A stretch of DNA of 64,000 bases from NCBI GenBank assembly GCA_964388955.1, contig CAYMCO010000015.1, positions 21,266 through 85,265 of the forward strand, in the 5' to 3' direction. Numbering within the stretch: the stretch's first letter is position 1; each line of letters opens with the position of its first letter. Below, in pieces: positions 23,549-36,265 of the stretch. A model generated the notes under the pieces. It ran no database searches. It was not told the DNA's origin and saw nothing but the letters and a program-made list of their open reading frames with translations. A program made the translations under genes and the position numbers. The stretch is from an uncultured Anaerolineaceae bacterium (lineage in GTDB: Bacteria; Chloroflexota; Anaerolineae; Anaerolineales; E44-bin32).

Positions 23549-26338
23549 TCAGGTCGCGGGCAATAGCCCGAGGGATCTGGCCTCCGCGACCGCCTGGGTG
23601 CGGTTGTTGACCGCGAGCTTGCCGTAGATGTTGCGGGTGTGAACCTTTACCGTATTATGGGAGAGAAACAATCTCCTGGCGATCTCGCGATTCGTCAGCC
23701 CGCGGGCGATGAGCTCGAGCACCTCCAGCTCGCGATCGCTCAATGGCTCAACCAACCGTGATTGATCGACCCCGGTCCTCCCTAGAGCGGCTTCAGTAGA
23801 GACATCAGGTGCAAACGCGGCAAGTAGGGTGCGAACGTACGCCTCCAGCCTGAGGGCATCCGGTCGTATCTTTCCCAACAATGATTTCATCGGCGCACCC
23901 TCGCCGACAAATGCGTGCGCATATCCCTCCGGTTCCGCAAGATCGAGAGCCCGTCCCAGAGAGATGAGCGCTCGAGGGAGCTTGCCCTGGGCTTGAAGCG
24001 CGAGCGCCTGAACCACCAGGATTTCGATCATGCTGCCGATTCTATTGCCATCCTCCGCAGCGTTCAGGAGGCGATCCAGCATTCCAAGTGTATCGCCAAT
24101 CAAACCCTCCGCGTGGGCTCTCTCATGCTCGGCGATCAATATCCTGGCCAGGGTGAGGTGCTCGAACTCGCACAAGTAGCTGGGATCATCGTGAACGGAC
24201 AGGCCCGCCTGCCGCGCCCAAAGCAGGCCTTCGTCCAACTTGCCCTGTCTCAACTTCGTCCGGGCGACCAGCGCCGCCAGGGGGCGTATGTCGGGAATAG
24301 GATGCCGATAATATAGGCGTTGTGCCTCCTCCAGAATCCGCCCAACAGCCTCCAAGTTTCCAGCGGACTCCATCAATCGAGCCCGAGCGAGCACCCAGTG
24401 TCGATACCAGGGGGGGAACGCCGGCAGCTCGCCTAGTTCCTCGCTATTCTCCAGATGCCGTCTGGCCGCTTCCAGATCACCCTGCTCATGGCACAGCTCA
24501 CTCAACCCCAGATGCACGACCGCCATTTCCGGCAGAACGGGTTCCCCCCGCTCCGCAGCCAAATCCAGGAGCTGTATATAGGTTTGTTTCGCTTCGTTGA
24601 GACGGCCCTGGGCGATCATGATGTCCGCCAAATACGAGGTGAAGCTGATGACGAAAGGGAGCTTTCCTAGAAGCCGCATATAGGATATGGCATCGGAGAT
24701 CGCCCGGTGGGCCGCCTCCAAATCCCCGGTCGACCAGTATGCGAACCCCGGGAGGATGGCTGAGAGACTGCGCTCGAAATAGTCATCGTCAGGCAGGAGG
24801 TCGAGCGCCCGTTGAGCGTAGGACACAGTGCCGGCGACGTCTCCGAGCGCCTGAGTGAGATAGGCGCGTGCATTGGCTATGGATCCCGACAGTGATCGCC
24901 GTTCCTGCTCGCTCAGGGCTGCCGTGTGGCCCGATGGGGGATCGGATTGGTGATTTCTGGCTGCTGTTGAGTCCAACCATCGTTCGGCATCCCGCAGACG
25001 GAGGTCGGCGCCCTCCAGATCGCCGAAATCTATCAATGACCAGCCATAGCCCGCGCTGAGTAGAGGCCTGGAACGAACAACTTCGTCTGGAATGGCCTCC
25101 ACCCATCGCAGCCAGTAGAGTCCCCCGTAGTTCATGTGCATTTCACGCCAGGCTGTTTCGGCCAAGCAGGCTGCTCGCTCATGATCCTTGGCTCTCAGAG
25201 CATGCTCTATCGCCTGCTCGGTGAACCTATTGGCCTCATACCACTCACTGGCCCTCAAGTGCAGGGTTGGTTGTTGTTGGGGTTGGGCTTGGCGCAAGCG
25301 TTGGCGCAATAGATCGGCGAAGAGATGATGATAGCGATACCAACGCCGCTCGTTGTCCAGGGGAACGACAAACAGATTCACATGCTCGAGATATTCAAGG
25401 ATCTCCTGACCATTGTTCTGGCCGGTCAGGGCATCGCATAGTGACCCGTTCAGCCTCTCCAGAATCGCAGTCTGGAGCAGAAAGGCTTGAATGCCTTCCG
25501 ATTGTTGATGCAGCACTTCTTCCAGCAAATAATCGAGCACGAGCCGGTGGCTGCCGGTAAACGATTTGATCAGTTCGCTCTTGTCTTCCTTGCCACGCAG
25601 TGAGATGGCAGCCAATTGCAGCCCCGCGATCCAGCCCTCCGTGCGTCTCTCGAGTGCGGCGATGTCTTCGTCCAGCAGATCCAACCCCATGACCTGGTTT
25701 AGGAATGCGGCAGCTTCGGCTGTGGTGAAGCGGAGATCCCCTGCGCGCAGCTCCGTCAACTGGTCAGCCACCCGCAGCTTTGCGATCGGCAACTCCGGGT
25801 CCATGCGTGTCAGGATGACGATGTGCATCTGTGGCGGCAAGTGTTCAAGGAAATAGGTGAGCGCCGCAATCACATCGGGCGCCTCGATGTGATGGAAATC
25901 GTCCATGACCACGAGGGCCCGATTCTCGAAGCCCTCGAACTCGTTGATCAGAGCGGTGAGCACGGCCTCGGCCGGGGGAGGGTGCGGCGATTGGAGCATA
26001 TCCAGCAGACGGCCTTTCTCGGGCGATTCAAGGCCCTTGACCCTGAGGAGTGCCGTGATCAGGTACGTCAGGAATCTGGCCGGATCATTGTCCGCCTCGT
26101 CCAGCGAATACCAGGCAATTTGAAGGCGGTTCGGGTCTGAATCTCGGGAGTGGGCCCGGAGCATCTCCACCCATTCGCTGATGACCGAAGTCTTGCCGAA
26201 GCCGGCGGGGGCGGAGATAAGGATCAATCTACGATGCAATCCATCGTTCAAACGCTCGATCAGACGCGGCCGAGCAACGCGTTTGGATCGAGCGGGCGGG
26301 ACATACAGCTTCGTGTACAGGATCTCTTCGTCGGGCAC
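23549..26338 (-). CDS. MalT-like STAND ATPase / LuxR-family transcriptional regulator
   Basis: 929 aa. N-terminal P-loop LILISAPAGFGKT, a long helical/TPR-like middle region, and a C-terminal LuxR HTH LSDRELEVLELIARGLTNREIARRLFLSHNTVKVHTRNIYGKLAVNNRTQAV. Confidence 0.85.
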   Translation of the reverse strand: MPDEEILYTKLYVPPARSKRVARPRLIERLNDGLHRRLILISAPAGFGKTSVISEWVEMLRAHSRDSDPNRLQIAWYSLDEADNDPARFLTYLITALLRVKGLESPEKGRLLDMLQSPHPPPAEAVLTALINEFEGFENRALVVMDDFHHIEAPDVIAALTYFLEHLPPQMHIVILTRMDPELPIAKLRVADQLTELRAGDLRFTTAEAAAFLNQVMGLDLLDEDIAALERRTEGWIAGLQLAAISLRGKEDKSELIKSFTGSHRLVLDYLLEEVLHQQSEGIQAFLLQTAILERLNGSLCDALTGQNNGQEILEYLEHVNLFVVPLDNERRWYRYHHLFADLLRQRLRQAQPQQQPTLHLRASEWYEANRFTEQAIEHALRAKDHERAACLAETAWREMHMNYGGLYWLRWVEAIPDEVVRSRPLLSAGYGWSLIDFGDLEGADLRLRDAERWLDSTAARNHQSDPPSGHTAALSEQERRSLSGSIANARAYLTQALGDVAGTVSYAQRALDLLPDDDYFERSLSAILPGFAYWSTGDLEAAHRAISDAISYMRLLGKLPFVISFTSYLADIMIAQGRLNEAKQTYIQLLDLAAERGEPVLPEMAVVHLGLSELCHEQGDLEAARRHLENSEELGELPAFPPWYRHWVLARARLMESAGNLEAVGRILEEAQRLYYRHPIPDIRPLAALVARTKLRQGKLDEGLLWARQAGLSVHDDPSYLCEFEHLTLARILIAEHERAHAEGLIGDTLGMLDRLLNAAEDGNRIGSMIEILVVQALALQAQGKLPRALISLGRALDLAEPEGYAHAFVGEGAPMKSLLGKIRPDALRLEAYVRTLLAAFAPDVSTEAALGRTGVDQSRLVEPLSDRELEVLELIARGLTNREIARRLFLSHNTVKVHTRNIYGKLAVNNRTQAVAEARSLGLLPAT

Positions 26339-30527: not shown

Positions 30528-33290
30528 TCAAGTGAAGGGCAGGATACCCAGCGCCCTTGCCTTGGAGATTGCCTGCGTGCGGTTGTTCACATCGAGTTTG
30601 CCGTAGATATTCCGCGTGTGGGCCTTGACGGTGTTGACGGATAGAAAGAGGCGGGCGGCGATCTGCCGATTGGTCAAGCCCTCGGAGATGTGCTGCAACA
30701 CATCGATCTCGCGCTCGGTCAACTGCTCAACGAGATGGGACTCTTGGGCTTTATGCGTTGACGGAGCCGCAGCCTCCGGTTCAGGGACCGGGAACGCACC
30801 CAGCAGCCGTTGCGCGTATCCCCCCGCCGCCTCTCGAGCCGCGGCCTCATAGAGCAGGCGGGCCATCGGAGGTCCCTCATCCAGGAAGATACGCACGAAA
30901 CCAAGCGGTTCGGCGAGGGCAAGCCCCCTCCCCAGCGAATCCAACGCCCGGTTCGTATCTCCCCAGGCTTGCAGGTCAAGCGCCTGGAGAATCAAGATTT
31001 CGATCACCCTCGATTTCCGCCCGGCCGTTTCCGCACCCTCGAGCAACGCTGCTAGAAGCCTCAAGGATTCTTCCATCCGTCCCAGGCGCATGAGCACTCG
31101 GGAGAGCGTGATGTATTCCACCTCGTGCAAATAGGTCGGCTGCCCATCGACCTTAAGCCCACGCTCCATCACCCAGTAGGATGCCGCGTCCAGCCTACCC
31201 TGAGCAAGCCAAGTGCGGGCCTGCCAGGCGGCCATCTGCGTTGGGATCCATGCAGGCATTTCGCTGTCCCGGGCCATTCTCTCAACCTTTCGCAACACGT
31301 TCTCGAGGCCGGCAAGATCCCCCATGGAGAACAGGACCCGGGCCAGGCACAAGTTGCTCCATCCGATCATGGCTACATCCCGACCCCTCTCGGTCAGACC
31401 CACCCCTTTCTCAGCCCGGTCAATGGCCTTGCCCAACTGATCCATCTCCGCGAGCACTTCCCCCCAGATTGCCAACAAGTAGCCAGCCGCGACCGTCTCC
31501 GATCTCCCAAATTCGCGCGCGGACCCTATCTGCCGCTCACATAGATCGATGATCTGCCTCAGCTCTCCCCGCTGCCTGAGCGTCTCGGCAAGCCGCAGAT
31601 GGGCGAGCATGAGCAGGTAGATATCACCTGTCGCTTCACTCGCTACCACGGTATCCCATCGGGCTTTGTAAGCGGCCTGCATGTCGCCCTGGTTTGCATG
31701 GGCGTCTCCCATGGCAATCAAGGCCGCGCTGCGCCAAAAGAGGTCCGTCTCGGGCAGATTGCCCAGCGCCCTGTGCGCCGACTCGAGGGTGGCAGACACA
31801 TCCCCCGCGTAGGACGCCAGAAACGCTCGGATCGTCGCCGCTCTCCCCACCAGCCTCGATCGATCCGCGACTGCGGGGCCATATTGCCCTGCGTGGGCCT
31901 CAGCGCTTTGATCGGGGTTGGTGAGGAGGATCTCGTCCAGGGAGGCTAGGCTTTCAGCCGCTGCCGCCAATTGGCCGCCGGTGAATAGATTCCAGGCTTG
32001 CAGCAGACATAGCTGCGGATTGGCGGCCACCAGATCGGCCGGCAGCGCTGCCAACCAGCGCCGGAGCTTCATATGCTCACCGCCCTGGTACATGACGTCG
32101 AATTGCGTTTCGATCATGGCCGCTGCGCGCTCATAATCCCTGCCGCGCAACGCATGCTCGATGGCCGGATCAATGAATCCGTTTTCCGCATACCATAGGC
32201 TGGCCAAGCGATGCAGGCCGGGTACTTGATCCGGATGCGACTGGCCCAAACGCTGTCGCAAGAAATCCGCGAAGAGCGGATGATACCGGTACCATCGTCT
32301 TTGGGCATCCAGGGGAAGGAGAAACAGGTTGCGCCTCTCCAGGATCTGCAGTGTCGAAGTTCCAACGGCTTCGCCCACGAGCGCGTCGCACAAGGGCCCT
32401 GTCAGGCGGTCGAGAATGGCGGTCTTTATCAGGAATCGCTGGATCGACTCTGATTGCTTTTCCAGGACCTCCTCAACGAGATAGTCGAGTACGAAGCGAT
32501 GGCTCCCAGAGAAGGCTTCGATGAAATCGCCTCTATCTTCCAGCCCCTGCATCGAAAGGGCGGCCAACTGTAGGCCAGCGATCCAGCCTTCGGTGCGCGC
32601 TTCCAGGGCCTCGATGTTCTTCTCCGAGAGTCCGAGCCCCATCACCTGGTTGAGAAACTCCGCCGACTCTGCGAGCGTGAAGCGCAGATCCGATGCTCGC
32701 AACTCAGCGAGCTGATCCTGGGCCCGCAGGCGGGCCAAGGGAAGATTCGGATCCACTCGGGTGACGAGCGCCAAATGCACGCTTGGAGGCATGTGCTCAA
32801 GTGTGAAGAGCAAGGCATCATCAACCGCGGAAGATTCGACGACATGGTAGTCATCGAGCACCAGCACCATCCTGCCGGGTGTGGCAGCGAAGGCGTTGAC
32901 CAGCGCGGTCAGCACGTCCTCGTACGGGGGCGCCTGAGGAGAACGGAGCATGCCAAGGATCCGTTCCTCCGTCTTCCCTTCAAGGGCCCCGAGCCGGCTG
33001 AGGGCGACGATCATGTAGGTCAGGAACCGCGTCGGATCGTTGTCCCCTTCGTCCAGCGAGACCCAGGCGACTTGGCCCCTGTTGGGGCTTTCACTGGCCC
33101 CAGCCGCGCCCACGTCCGCCACCCATTTGCTGATCAGTGTCGTCTTTCCAAAACCCGCCGGAGCCGAAATCAGGCTCATCCTGCGGCTCAGGCCCCTGTT
33201 CAACTGTTCTATTAGCCGCGGCCGCGAGACGAGATTCGCCCGCGCAGGGGGAATAAATAGCTTCGCACTGAGTATCTCTCGGGGAGACAT
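30528..33290 (-). CDS. MalT-like STAND ATPase / LuxR-family transcriptional regulator (paralog)
   Basis: 920 aa. P-loop MSLISAPAGFGKT and C-terminal HTH LTEREIDVLQHISEGLTNRQIAARLFLSVNTVKAHTRNIYGKLDVNNRTQAI. It is collinear with 23549..26338 from the first residues (KLFIPPARANLVSRPRLIEQLNRGL versus KLYVPPARSKRVARPRLIERLNDGL). Confidence 0.85.
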   Translation of the reverse strand: MSPREILSAKLFIPPARANLVSRPRLIEQLNRGLSRRMSLISAPAGFGKTTLISKWVADVGAAGASESPNRGQVAWVSLDEGDNDPTRFLTYMIVALSRLGALEGKTEERILGMLRSPQAPPYEDVLTALVNAFAATPGRMVLVLDDYHVVESSAVDDALLFTLEHMPPSVHLALVTRVDPNLPLARLRAQDQLAELRASDLRFTLAESAEFLNQVMGLGLSEKNIEALEARTEGWIAGLQLAALSMQGLEDRGDFIEAFSGSHRFVLDYLVEEVLEKQSESIQRFLIKTAILDRLTGPLCDALVGEAVGTSTLQILERRNLFLLPLDAQRRWYRYHPLFADFLRQRLGQSHPDQVPGLHRLASLWYAENGFIDPAIEHALRGRDYERAAAMIETQFDVMYQGGEHMKLRRWLAALPADLVAANPQLCLLQAWNLFTGGQLAAAAESLASLDEILLTNPDQSAEAHAGQYGPAVADRSRLVGRAATIRAFLASYAGDVSATLESAHRALGNLPETDLFWRSAALIAMGDAHANQGDMQAAYKARWDTVVASEATGDIYLLMLAHLRLAETLRQRGELRQIIDLCERQIGSAREFGRSETVAAGYLLAIWGEVLAEMDQLGKAIDRAEKGVGLTERGRDVAMIGWSNLCLARVLFSMGDLAGLENVLRKVERMARDSEMPAWIPTQMAAWQARTWLAQGRLDAASYWVMERGLKVDGQPTYLHEVEYITLSRVLMRLGRMEESLRLLAALLEGAETAGRKSRVIEILILQALDLQAWGDTNRALDSLGRGLALAEPLGFVRIFLDEGPPMARLLYEAAAREAAGGYAQRLLGAFPVPEPEAAAPSTHKAQESHLVEQLTEREIDVLQHISEGLTNRQIAARLFLSVNTVKAHTRNIYGKLDVNNRTQAISKARALGILPFT

Positions 33291-33505: not shown

Positions 33506-33534
33506 TTGACATTTATGCATTTCGCATATATGCT
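33506..33534 (+). promoter_or_regulatory. sigma70-like promoter with embedded palindrome (candidate NrtR operator)
   Basis: TTGACA (33506-33511), a 17-nt spacer, then TATGCT (33529-33534). The spacer contains the palindrome TATGC-ATTTC-GCATA (33514-33528). This is an AT-rich island in GC-rich DNA, about 30 nt upstream of the GGGAGGA-ATG at 33564. Confidence 0.55.
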
Positions 33535-33563
33535 ATATGAAGATAAGTATCCGGGAGGACCCC

Positions 33564-34316
33564 ATGCAGAAGCCAGAGGCGGAAGGCGACGTGGCGGAGG
33601 TTATCTCCGAAGTTCGTCTCACGGACGACTTCCCCCGCCCCGCTGTGTCTGTCGATGTGGCGGCACTGAGCGCCCATGAGGGGCATCTTTGGGCGCTCGT
33701 GATCAAGCGGCGAAAGGCTCCGTATCGAGAATCCTGGGCGCTGCCTGGAGGTTTCATCGGGATGCAAGAGTCGCTTGACCAAGCCGCCCAGCGCCTGCTG
33801 TCCGACGAGGCTGGCTTGAAGGATGTCTACCTGGAACAGCTCTATACCTTCGGAGAACCGGATCGAGATCCGCGGGCGCGGGTCATCACCGTTGCCTACT
33901 ATGCGCTCGTCGCCTGGCGCCGCCTGCAGCATCTGCAATCCAAAGAGCAGCCCACGTTGATGAGGCTGGATGTGGAATGGTCGGGGGAGACGGGCGGCCC
34001 GGTCGATTTGCTCGATGAAGGAGGCAAACGCCAGGCGATCGCCTTCGACCACACTGATATCCTGGGCATGGCTGTGAAACGCATTCGGGGCAAGCTGGAC
34101 TACGTCCCCATCGGGTTCCAATTGCTGCCGGAGCGCTTCACCCTGCGCCAGCTTCAACAGGTCCACGAAACGATTCTGGGCAACCCGCTGAACAAGGATT
34201 CCTTTCGGCGGCGCATGCTGTCGTCCGGGCTACTCGAGGCCACCGGGGAGCGCGAGCAGGATGTTGATCACCGTCCCGCCGAGCTCTACCGCTTCACGAG
34301 ACGCTCGGCGATATAG
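33564..34316 (+). CDS. NrtR-like regulator (degenerate Nudix domain plus C-terminal winged helix)
   Basis: The Nudix box GGFIGMQESLDQAAQRLLSDEAGL has RE changed to RL and EE changed to DE. The C-terminus FDHTDILGMAVKRIRGKLDYVPIGFQLLPERFTLRQLQQVHETILGNPLNKDSFRRRMLSSGLLEATGE matches the NrtR wHTH pattern. The start is at the SD-preceded ATG 33564, not 33537. Confidence 0.75.
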   Translation: MQKPEAEGDVAEVISEVRLTDDFPRPAVSVDVAALSAHEGHLWALVIKRRKAPYRESWALPGGFIGMQESLDQAAQRLLSDEAGLKDVYLEQLYTFGEPDRDPRARVITVAYYALVAWRRLQHLQSKEQPTLMRLDVEWSGETGGPVDLLDEGGKRQAIAFDHTDILGMAVKRIRGKLDYVPIGFQLLPERFTLRQLQQVHETILGNPLNKDSFRRRMLSSGLLEATGEREQDVDHRPAELYRFTRRSAI

Positions 34317-34335
34317 CGGGGAAAGGAGACATTCC

Positions 34336-35358
34336 ATGGCTGAAATCCGGAATTACGGGATCCTGCATCATCTGCGATCCGAACCATCGGCGCATATGCT
34401 GCGCTTCCGGGGCGGCCGGCTCGTCGCCAGCGGCGCCGGCATGGCCTTCTGGTTCCAGTCCCTCTCGACGGCGCTGGCCGAAGTGCCGCTGGACGATCGT
34501 GAGCTTCCCTTCTTGATCGGCGCCCGCACGCTCGACTTCCAAGAGGCATCGATCCAAGGCGCGTTGACCTTTCGCGTGGCCGATCCGGAACGGCTGGCGA
34601 GCCGCATTGACTTCAGCATCGACCTACGCGAGGGCCGCTACCTTCAGAGGCCCCTTGAGCAGCTCGCAGACCTCATCATCCAGTTCGCCCAGGGTTTTGC
34701 CATCGAATACCTCAATCAAACCCCGCTTCGGCAGGTGCTTTCCCAAGGTCTGCCCGAAGTGCGTGCGCGCATCACACGGGGTCTCGGGAATAGCCCGGAA
34801 CTGGCAGCCCTGGGGATCGAGTTGGTGGCGGTGCGGCTGGAAGGGATCTCCCCATCCGCCGAGGTGGAAAAGGCGCTCCAAGCCCCGGCACGAGAGTCGA
34901 TCCAGCAGCGGGCGGATCAAGCAGCCTTCGAGCGCCGGGCGAAGGCCGTGGAGAAGGAACGCGCCATCGCCGAGAACGAGCTGCAGAACAAAATCGAATT
35001 GGCTCGCCGCGAGGAGACTTTGATCGCTCAACAGGGTCTAAATGAGCGCAGACGGGTGACTGACGAAGCGGAGACACGCCGGTTGGAAGCCGAGGCAGAG
35101 GCGACCCGGCTCAAAGTGCGTCGCCAGGCCGAGGCGGAGGGGATCGATCTGCTGCAAGGTGCTCACAACCGGGCGGAGGCGGACCGCATGGGGATCTATC
35201 GGGAGCTACCATCTGACGTATTGCTTGGGCTCGCTGCCCGGGAGTTGGCTGGGAAGCTGGAGCACATCGACTACCTGAATGTGGCTCCCGAGACGCTCAG
35301 CCCACTCCTGGCCGGTTTGATGGCTGCCGGCAAGCGGAAGCTGGAAAATGCGGAATGA
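34336..35358 (+). CDS. SPFH/band-7 domain protein without an N-terminal TM segment
   Basis: GAAAGGAGA lies upstream of ATG 34336. The SPFH core runs from [15 protein letters not shown] to [35 protein letters not shown], followed by a long charged coiled-coil tail ([29 protein letters not shown]...). Confidence 0.75.
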
Positions 35359-36265
35359 CGCGGTGGGGACGAGCGTCCCTCGGGTGATCGTCATCACCCG
35401 GGCAACGGCGTATGAACGCCTGCTCCAACAACACGGAACGTCCGGGCAAGCGCGCTTCTTTCTCGAACGCCGAGGGGTTGCCTTGGAGACTCTATTGGAA
35501 ATCCATGCCCGGCAGGAACGCGCCCTCAAGCTCGTTCAGGGATCCATCCCTCGCGATTGGCGTCGAGGCAGAATCGATCGAGAAGGACTGGATCGGTTCT
35601 TGTTTGAGGACCGCGATGTGGTGGTGGCGGTGGGGCAAGATGGCCTGGTGGCGAACGTGGCCAAATATCTACGGGGGCAACCCGTCATCGGCATCAATCC
35701 CAGCCCTGACCGCTACCCAGGGGTGCTCGTCCCTCACCTTCCCGAAGCAGCCGCTGAGTTGCTGTTGGCGGCCGGGCGCGGGCACGCCGAGATTCAGCGC
35801 AGGACAATGGTGGAAGCTCGTCTGGATGACGGCCAGCAACTGTTGGCGCTGAATGAGATCTACGTCGGGCACGCCAGCCATCAGTCCGCCCGCTATCGCC
35901 TGAGGTGGGATGGCCGCGAAGAGCGCCAGTCGTCTTCCGGCCTGATTGTGGCGACCGGCACAGGGGCCACTGGCTGGGCCCGCTCTATCCACCAGGAGAG
36001 GGGATCTTCCCTCGAGCTGCCCGATCCAACTGATCCGAGATTGGCTTTCTTCGTTCGTGAAGCCTGGCCCTCCCCCGACTCAGGCACCGCGCTGACCGAG
36101 GGCCTTTTGGAAGGACGGGAAGGCCTGCGGATCCTCAGCGAGATGGAGAATGGCGGGGTAGCCTTTGGTGACGGGATCGAAGCGGATCACATGGACCTCT
36201 TGTGGGGCCAGCAACTGGTCGTCGGCCTGGCGCGTGCGCGCCTAAACCTGGTGCTCGGCACCTAG
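35348..36265 (+). CDS. NAD kinase-fold protein (ATP-NAD kinase/diacylglycerol kinase superfamily)
   Basis: [18 protein letters not shown] is a GGDG-type motif with Q in place of [10 protein letters not shown] is the NE motif. [18 protein letters not shown] corresponds to the GDGLIVSTPTGSTAY block of NadK. The gene overlaps the SPFH stop by 11 nt. Confidence 0.7.

Follow-up and report, generated by a model that had tools for sequence, protein, structure and literature searches.

We describe a three-gene operon on the + strand of a 64,000-nucleotide (64-kb) stretch of DNA from an uncultured Anaerolineaceae bacterium (GenBank assembly GCA_964388955.1, contig CAYMCO010000015.1; the whole stretch is referred to here as 'the window'), encoding an NrtR-family regulator, a protein of the SPFH (Band 7) family and a protein with the fold of a nicotinamide adenine dinucleotide (NAD) kinase that resembles the human mitochondrial enzyme NADK2 (C5orf33). 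Our reading, to which we assign a probability of roughly 0.5, is that this operon is self-contained and autoregulated, and that it would answer a signal of NAD breakdown by making two products, an SPFH oligomer and an accessory NAD(H) kinase of NADK2 type. We infer the effector, the kinase substrate, and the contact between SPFH protein and kinase with its purpose, as follows. Dimers of the NrtR-family repressor would bind their own promoter at a composite operator that lies between the −35 and −10 elements and extends over them, and all three genes would thereby be silenced. An accumulating product of NAD breakdown, most likely free ADP-ribose, would fill the catalytically degraded Nudix pocket, the repressor would be released from the DNA and all three genes would be transcribed. 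The SPFH and kinase genes would be translationally coupled and their products would most likely form a complex, in which the anchor-less SPFH protein would assemble into a ring- or cage-like oligomer that holds or gates the kinase. The kinase, as an accessory enzyme of NADK2 type, would most likely phosphorylate the adenosine 2'-OH of NAD+ or NADH, and would thereby top up NADP(H) while the pyridine-nucleotide pool is consumed.

An original prediction, made from the letters of the sequence and a list of its open reading frames (ORFs), had placed the three genes in one tight operon, the first two separated by 19 nt and the last two overlapping by 11 nt, and the ORF coordinates reproduce this layout (gap 34317-34335 between genes 1 and 2, overlap 35348-35358 between genes 2 and 3; Table 1). 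Alternative upstream starts exist for the first two reading frames (33537 and 34261, respectively). For the first gene, a GGAGG element is located 5 nt 5' of the start at 33564 and the 250-amino-acid product is an exact entry in a public collection; the predicted −10 element ends at 33534, so that transcription is expected to begin at the alternative ATG (33537) or a little 3' of it. For the SPFH gene we favour the start at 34336, since 28 of 28 aligned orthologues begin with methionine there (with A2 and I4 kept in at least 90% of them, a MAEI-type start). A histidine kinase gene on the opposite strand ends 20 nt past the stop codon of the kinase gene, and the operon therefore comprises exactly three genes.

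Table 1. Features of the operon and of its promoter region (window coordinates)
Feature	Position	Strand	Basis
nrtR-like gene, 250 aa	33564..34316	+	Pfam NUDIX and NrtR_WHD, orthologues
SPFH (Band 7) gene, 340 aa	34336..35358	+	Pfam Band_7, hydropathy, AlphaFold2, Foldseek
NADK2 (C5orf33)-type NAD-kinase-fold gene, 305 aa	35348..36265	+	PDB profile search, AlphaFold2, Foldseek
σ70-like promoter (predicted), TTGACA, 17-nt spacer, TATGCT	33506..33534	+	consensus scan, 10/12
Composite NrtR-type operator (predicted), TTTATGC-N5-GCATATATGC-N5-GAAGATA	33512..33545	not applicable	cross-locus consensus, shuffles

The kinase belongs to a large family: more than 8,000 database proteins match it at E ≤ 0.001, clustering at 50% identity gives 2,112 clusters at the same E-value limit (268 at E ≤ 1e-30), and it occurs in at least 596 of the approximately 185,000 species of a one-genome-per-species collection, with about 60% identity between phyla and with homologues on 67 plasmid records. 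We surveyed the triad in 80 kinase-bearing genome loci, with the three proteins of the window as tblastn queries, and found the SPFH gene directly 5' of the kinase gene, the two overlapping or very close, in 79 of the 79 loci that include upstream DNA. The gene neighbourhood that the original prediction had proposed as a check on SPFH and NadK-like pairs is thus conserved in every evaluable locus, and the full triad is present in many genomes besides this one. An nrtR gene adjoins the pair in 65 of the 74 loci with enough flanking DNA: it lies upstream and co-directional in 31 (mostly 53-67% identity to the window protein; 46% in L016 and L076), downstream of the kinase gene in one, and divergent, immediately 5' of the SPFH gene, in 33 (about 33-47% identity), the divergent loci being mostly from Actinomycetota, including Solirubrobacterales, with two from Acidobacteriota; in the other nine loci the flanks suffice to judge and no nrtR is adjacent. 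The hosts span Myxococcota and other 'Deltaproteobacteria', Planctomycetota, Acidobacteriota (Geothrix), Chloroflexota, Alphaproteobacteria and Actinomycetota (Kribbella, Nocardioides, Mycolicibacterium neoaurum and Dactylosporangium). Independent look-ups returned the same triad between unrelated flanks, including those of Haliangium ochraceum and of Rhizobium plasmids (where NCBI annotates the kinase as a 'sugar kinase'), and also in gammaproteobacterial and planctomycete assemblies whose kinase is 37-43% identical to that of the window, such that the SPFH-kinase pairing persists down to approximately 37% kinase identity. Since the same gene order recurs across phyla, the arrangement is not due to chance. 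Moreover, no other flanking gene family was found in more than 8 loci by a crude ORF clustering of the 80 loci, which was disturbed by shadow frames in high-GC DNA and was used only for this question of wide recurrence; what is conserved is therefore the pair of SPFH and kinase genes, in most cases joined by an nrtR of its own.

Two loci deserve separate mention. A contig labelled as a Halobacteria archaeon carries a full triad behind a bacterial-type TTGACT promoter (L016:3113-5891), and its archaeal label could reflect either mis-binning or transfer into an archaeon. A second locus holds a decayed module (L095:6313-7954), consisting of an 87-amino-acid winged-helix fragment, a 73-amino-acid remnant at the SPFH position and an intact kinase.

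We then asked of which type the kinase-fold protein is. It scores 18.3 bits against the Pfam NAD kinase model PF01513 (cut-off 25.5) and at best 34 bits against the NCBIfam NadK models (cut-off 316, with cut-offs of at least 211 for the models matched). When a profile of 23 homologues was run against the PDB, human NADK2 came out on top (1e-17, 67 bits), ahead of the best canonical bacterial NadK (4.5e-07, 32 bits). The AlphaFold2 model (mean pLDDT, the predicted local distance difference test, of 92) has the two-domain NAD kinase fold, and a Foldseek search of the PDB with it places NAD kinases in all of the first 50 ranks, with the highest query-normalised TM-score (0.73) to NADK2 and E-values to canonical NAD kinases down to about 1e-18. 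The protein is not a canonical NadK; by profile and by fold it groups with mitochondrial NADK2. The divergent NAD-kinase fold that had been predicted from the sequence is borne out by these comparisons, which also speak to the proposed question of whether the protein groups with NadK or with lipid kinases. A lipid kinase reaction, which the original prediction had entertained, is disfavoured because all of the top 50 matches are NAD kinases, none being a diacylglycerol, sphingosine or other lipid kinase.

The original prediction had itself raised the possibility that the third gene is the sole, ordinary housekeeping nadK of its genome; we regard this, with neighbours that stand beside it by chance, as very improbable. 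Some public sources do name homologues 'NAD kinase' or 'NAD(+)/NADH kinase', and no other nadK candidate lies within the 64-kb window; however, the scores fall well short of every curated NadK threshold, the kinase gene is accompanied across phyla by an SPFH gene without exception and by nrtR often, its diagnostic residues point to the NADK2 type and not to the canonical one, and a housekeeping role is made unlikely by the presence of homologues on plasmids and in a small minority of species. Two GGDG-containing reading frames of the window were considered as a canonical nadK and rejected as spurious.

The diagnostic residues were read against the work of Ohashi et al. (PMC3535332), in which the C5orf33 type is marked by Ser306, Lys317 and Trp319, the Trp being invariant, in place of Asp189, Thr200 and Tyr202 of Mycobacterium tuberculosis Ppnk. 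In the profile-search alignment, from which all residue correspondences between human NADK2 and the window protein are taken, the type signature S306 corresponds to S197, the nicotinamide-stacking W319 to W210, the catalytic D161 to D98 and K76, near the diphosphate, to R18, all four being invariant; K317, a variable position, corresponds to T208, and the adenosine-stacking H191 to V126, which is not conserved. D98 lies within the GQDG motif noted in the original prediction (G96-Q97-D98-G99), which is invariant in the 23 homologues, as is N169-E170 (the short NE/D motif); more distant members have GQDG, GPDG or GDDG, and one has GDPG. For comparison, GGDG is reported in 58 of 65 eukaryotic C5orf33 homologues (PMC3535332). 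Motif 1 of C5orf33, PX-GXN(T/S)DP, agrees in its first half with the window sequence P-V-I-G-I-N-P-S-P and differs in its second half. The window kinase has 305 amino acids versus 442 in human NADK2, and the dimerisation insert of the animal mitochondrial enzymes (EMKA) is probably absent from it. Separately, one homologue of 557 amino acids (P0127) bears a C-terminal extension of about 250 amino acids with hydrophobic stretches and is possibly a membrane-anchored variant.

The invariant nicotinamide-stacking Trp favours a dinucleotide as substrate, and we put the chance that this dinucleotide is NAD(H) at about even. These residues also bear on whether the protein is an enzyme at all. It might be a pseudokinase, that is, a NAD(P)-binding sensor that controls the SPFH oligomer, with the latter as the real effector; the second Gly of GGDG is lost family-wide, the GDPG of one distant member displaces the catalytic Asp, and the ligand-contact residues W210, R18 and NE are conserved, all of which would fit a binding protein. 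Nevertheless, we consider a pseudokinase improbable, given that all 23 of the closest homologues, and nearly all distant ones examined, keep the catalytic Asp, and that an identity of about 60% between phyla is typical of an enzyme under strong constraint.

The product of the first gene carries the Pfam domains NUDIX (2.4e-12, residues 27-119) and NrtR_WHD (4.9e-27, residues 184-244), and scores 166 bits against the curated NCBIfam NtrR equivalog NF050029, below the cut-off of 400; judged by its sequence, it is a member of the NrtR family, yet no equivalog of the curated NtrR. Its Nudix box reads R77-L-L-S-D-E82, and the originally predicted NrtR-type regulator with a degraded Nudix box is upheld by this motif, by the winged-helix match and by the retention of arginines that contact ADP-ribose. 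The nearest solved proteins are the arabinose-binding BtAraR (1.1e-36) and the ADP-ribose-binding Shewanella NrtR (1.1e-27), with EF2700 also among them, and the two ligand types can be told apart by residues listed in the AraR paper. Among the ADP-ribose contacts of Shewanella NrtR, R41 (R34 in BtAraR) and R98 (G89) correspond to R49 and R104 of the window protein, N43 (F36) to K51, at a variable position, and K76 (L67) to E82; at this last position, 30 of 35 co-directional orthologues have Lys where the window protein has Glu. R49, R101 and R104 are kept in 67-68 of 68 module-linked regulators. The conserved contact arginines (R49 and R104) point to a nucleotide-sugar ligand of ADP-ribose type, which is likely on these residues. 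ADP-ribose is the strongest anti-repressor in vitro for two characterised NrtRs, and 2'-phospho-ADP-ribose and NADP(H) are likewise active in such tests; we favour ADP-ribose itself as the effector, with somewhat better than even confidence. The Nudix box is degraded in the co-directional regulators and intact (RExxEE) in 29 of 33 divergent ones (nrtR of L009-L085), and regulators of the divergent arrangement with an intact box may still hydrolyse their ligand.

A candidate operator for this regulator overlaps the predicted promoter (Table 1). Two 21-bp-type palindromes with a TG-N7-CA core overlap in it, and it includes a perfect palindrome, TATGCatttcGCATA, at 33514-33528, within the spacer and −10 region; a search for TATGC-N5-GCATA with at most one mismatch returned a single match in the 64-kb window, namely TATGCatttcGCATA. 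Alignment of the regions upstream of co-directional nrtR genes yielded the consensus TTAGATGC-N5-GCATATATGC-N5-GCATCTAA, directly 3' of the −35 hexamer, and the TTGAC element 5' of the operator is also found in most orthologous loci. We searched for composite sites with no more than 5 mismatches over the 24 specified positions: the window site has 5/24 mismatches to the cross-locus consensus, a score that 0 of 200 shuffles of the window reached, and besides the window, 24 other loci contain a composite site, always on the + strand and 5' of nrtR or of the SPFH gene. Three loci without an adjacent nrtR (L015, L024 and L062), as well as the locus in which nrtR lies 3' of the kinase gene (L067), keep the composite site before the SPFH gene, which argues for control in trans. 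In the divergent actinobacterial loci, the intergenic region between nrtR and the SPFH gene holds two palindromes of the type TTATCGTCA-N3-TGACGATAA, one of which overlaps a TTGACG −35 element. Published NrtR sites overlap promoters and are palindromes of 21 bp whose core reads GT-N7-AC or TG-N7-CA, and both versions of our motif agree with this description. Within the window, the sole operator precedes nrtR, the SPFH gene and the kinase gene rather than genes for NAD synthesis, NAD salvage or pentose use. The original prediction had placed an SPFH protein and a NAD kinase outside the described NrtR regulons, and the table of Rodionov et al. (2008) indeed lists neither. Taken together, regulation of the module by NrtR appears very probable.

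The second gene product matches Pfam Band_7/SPFH at 2.2e-11. In a hydropathy scan of 25 sequences (the window protein and 24 homologues), the Kyte-Doolittle mean over 19 residues was 1.43 or less; no transmembrane helix is predicted, because no 19-residue window exceeds this value, and the lack of a membrane anchor, as originally proposed, extends to the homologues scanned. In an AlphaFold2 model built with database homologues (mean pLDDT 77), a domain of strands and helices (approximately residues 19-173) is followed by helices at 175-232, 237-289, 293-309 and 318-339. Foldseek matched this model to HflK/C, stomatin, erlin, prohibitin, flotillin, QmcA and major vault protein (MVP), which form large ring or cage assemblies, and every solved SPFH protein of this domain-plus-helix architecture known to us is a ring- or cage-like oligomer. 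As for a complex between the SPFH protein and the kinase, we consider the odds to be balanced. The stress-triggered NAD(H) phosphorylation and the organising SPFH oligomer suggested in the original prediction are likewise inferred. A bolder extension of this idea, that the SPFH protein forms a soluble, vault-like cage which surrounds or carries the kinase as an ADP-ribose-switched compartment in which pyridine nucleotides are phosphorylated, and that the bacterial clade was the source of the mitochondrial and peroxisomal NADK2/NADK3 lineage of eukaryotes, strikes us as a speculative and rather unlikely one.

Genes that accompany the module in single lineages link it to NAD and ADP-ribose metabolism; none of them is general. 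In Geothrix alkalitolerans, a gene for a bifunctional nicotinamide mononucleotide (NMN) adenylyltransferase/Nudix protein of NadM type begins 10 nt past the kinase stop codon (L018:5913-6920), and it is only in Geothrix that this NAD salvage gene joins the operon. One metagenomic locus with a distant variant of the cluster (L088:3-6471) encodes a SLOG-domain protein, NrtR, an ADP-ribosylglycohydrolase, a 213-amino-acid protein without assignment and the kinase (P0181). In Haliangium ochraceum, a DUF4291 gene, for which an ADP-ribosyltransferase-like fold was predicted in a 2025 survey, lies between nrtR and the SPFH gene (L091:2280-2879), and the two adjacent genes directly 3' of the module (L091:5042-8457) match the defence sirtuin Dsr1 in two parts (N-terminal SIR2 part 6.9e-101, C-terminal part 3.3e-32); this pair is a split Dsr1-like NADase beside an operon that probably responds to ADP-ribose. 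A HEPN/nucleotidyltransferase pair lies downstream of the module in L004. We also noted, on a plasmid of Rhizobium sp. Pop5, a gene for a RES-family NAD+ phosphorylase 2.6 kb 3' of the module (L089:9517-10074).

The neighbours centred on ADP-ribose in L088 (ADP-ribosylglycohydrolase, SLOG) and in Haliangium (DUF4291 and the Dsr1-like SIR2 pair) would also suit a kinase that acts not in NADP synthesis but on another NAD-derived adenine nucleotide, such as ADP-ribose, nicotinic acid adenine dinucleotide (NaAD) or a cyclic or modified ADP-ribose signal; in that case, the module would belong to a system of ADP-ribose signalling, detoxification or conflict, with the SPFH oligomer as its effector or container. 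The family-wide non-canonical G[Q/P/D]DG motif fits this alternative, as does the observation that 2'-phospho-ADP-ribose too releases Shewanella NrtR from DNA. We nevertheless consider it less likely than our main reading, as the nicotinamide-stacking Trp of NADK2 is invariant here, the accessory genes belong to single lineages with no flanking family in more than 8 loci, no PADLOC model matches the triad and no relatives were found on viral contigs. Some of the same neighbourhoods could be taken to indicate defence, against phage or otherwise, by manipulation of NAD, a conflict-type role that the original prediction had kept in view: the Dsr1-like SIR2 pair adjoins the module in Haliangium, the HEPN/nucleotidyltransferase pair lies in L004, and the RES-family NAD+ phosphorylase stands 2.6 kb away on the Rhizobium plasmid. 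However, PADLOC-DB v2 gave no match at E ≤ 0.01 for the three proteins, nor for P0181, a scan of viral contigs found no relatives, the flanking genes vary and have, for the most part, metabolic or regulatory functions, and the very high conservation of the module is unlike that of fast-evolving defence genes. Direct support for a defence role was thus lacking in these scans, and we consider such a role decidedly improbable.

Several points weigh against the NADP-synthesis operon that we favour, and we collect them here. First, the second Gly of GGDG is never present in the kinase family, and in consequence the use of ATP, or catalysis itself, could differ from that of known NAD kinases. Second, the regulator is slightly nearer in sequence to the arabinose-binding AraR than to the ADP-ribose-binding NrtR, which leaves its effector less than certain. 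Third, no canonical nadK, to which the kinase would be accessory, was found in the 64-kb window, to which that search extends. Fourth, an SPFH oligomer has no evident purpose in NADP synthesis. Finally, apparent SPFH-kinase fusions lend little to the proposed complex. P0181 of L088 is an apparent SPFH::kinase fusion of 574 amino acids, in which the first strand of the kinase is missing; when it was used as a query, only split relatives and no second fused protein came up, and as a singleton and possible assembly artefact it deserves little weight as proof of physical coupling. Two further apparent fusions (P0232 and P0254) were rejected as frameshift chimeras with out-of-frame, low-complexity stretches.

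Elsewhere in the window, the operon is flanked by MalT-type regulators, a two-component system and a MacB-type permease. The MalT-type LuxR regulators are two paralogues of 929 and 920 amino acids on the minus strand (23549-26338 and 30528-33290, respectively), each containing AAA_16 and GerE domains and a MalT TPR region; transcription of the second diverges from that of the operon, with a promoter-like site at 33347-33319.

The families of the three parts are known; from the sequences analysed, what appears to be new is a large bacterial clade of NADK2 type, its obligate soluble SPFH partner and its dedicated NrtR control through a tandem operator. The combination of NrtR, SPFH protein and NAD kinase was not found in the literature searched (open-access papers and preprints). 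In PMC3535332 and a related paper, homologues of C5orf33 are described in animals and protists only, and bacteria are said to use a single NADK; a large, conserved bacterial clade of this type would alter that picture and would bear on the origin of the mitochondrial enzyme. The module is small and is present in the cultured Haliangium ochraceum, Rhizobium, Mycolicibacterium neoaurum, Kribbella and Geothrix, which makes these proposals testable.

Compared with the NrtR regulons described by Rodionov et al. (2008; PMC2330246), the window shares the two-domain regulator, its probable autoregulation and the conserved arginines that contact ADP-ribose, and its operator is alike in being a 21-bp-type palindrome with a TG-N7-CA/GT-N7-AC core over the promoter. 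It differs from them in the tandem, composite form of this operator, in the regulator score (166 bits versus the 400 NtrR cut-off) and in its targets, which here are an SPFH protein and an NADK2-type kinase rather than the genes of NAD synthesis, salvage and pentose use tabulated there; the NrtR regulon would accordingly be extended from NAD synthesis to, probably, NADP synthesis.

Among SPFH systems, HflK/C-FtsH, QmcA-YbbJ, stomatin-NfeD and vault MVP-PARP4 resemble the module in having an SPFH domain followed by long helices and a tight operon with a partner. Unlike all of these, the window protein has no transmembrane or hairpin anchor, its oligomer is a prediction, and its partner is a nucleotide kinase, whereas the partners elsewhere are an NfeD protein or a protease. 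An N-terminal anchor is found in 10 of the 12 prokaryotic subfamilies of the SPFH superfamily, and the window protein is without one. Hinderhofer et al. (2009; PMC2636767) defined SPFH8 and SPFH9 as predicted soluble prokaryotic subfamilies with no documented member or function, and their survey does not mention a kinase or Nudix partner for soluble SPFH proteins; the window protein is predicted to be soluble like them. Soluble SPFH proteins, previously with no documented member or partner, would gain a constant partner, an enzyme, that is open to direct testing.

With canonical NadK/PpnK (EC 2.7.1.23), the kinase shares the two-domain fold and the NE motif, but it is set apart by its sub-threshold scores, by GQDG, by Ser/Thr/Trp in place of Asp/Thr/Tyr and by its fixed gene context. 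Human mitochondrial NADK2 (C5orf33), with plant NADK3, is its best match in sequence and fold, with Ser and Trp replacing the canonical Asp and Tyr in both; they further have in common the catalytic Asp, the NE motif and, close to the diphosphate, a positively charged residue. Unlike NADK2, however, the window kinase has GQDG for GGDG and Val at the H191 position, is about 135 residues shorter and lacks a targeting peptide, and it is encoded by a bacterial gene, in an operon with an SPFH protein and under the probable control of NrtR.

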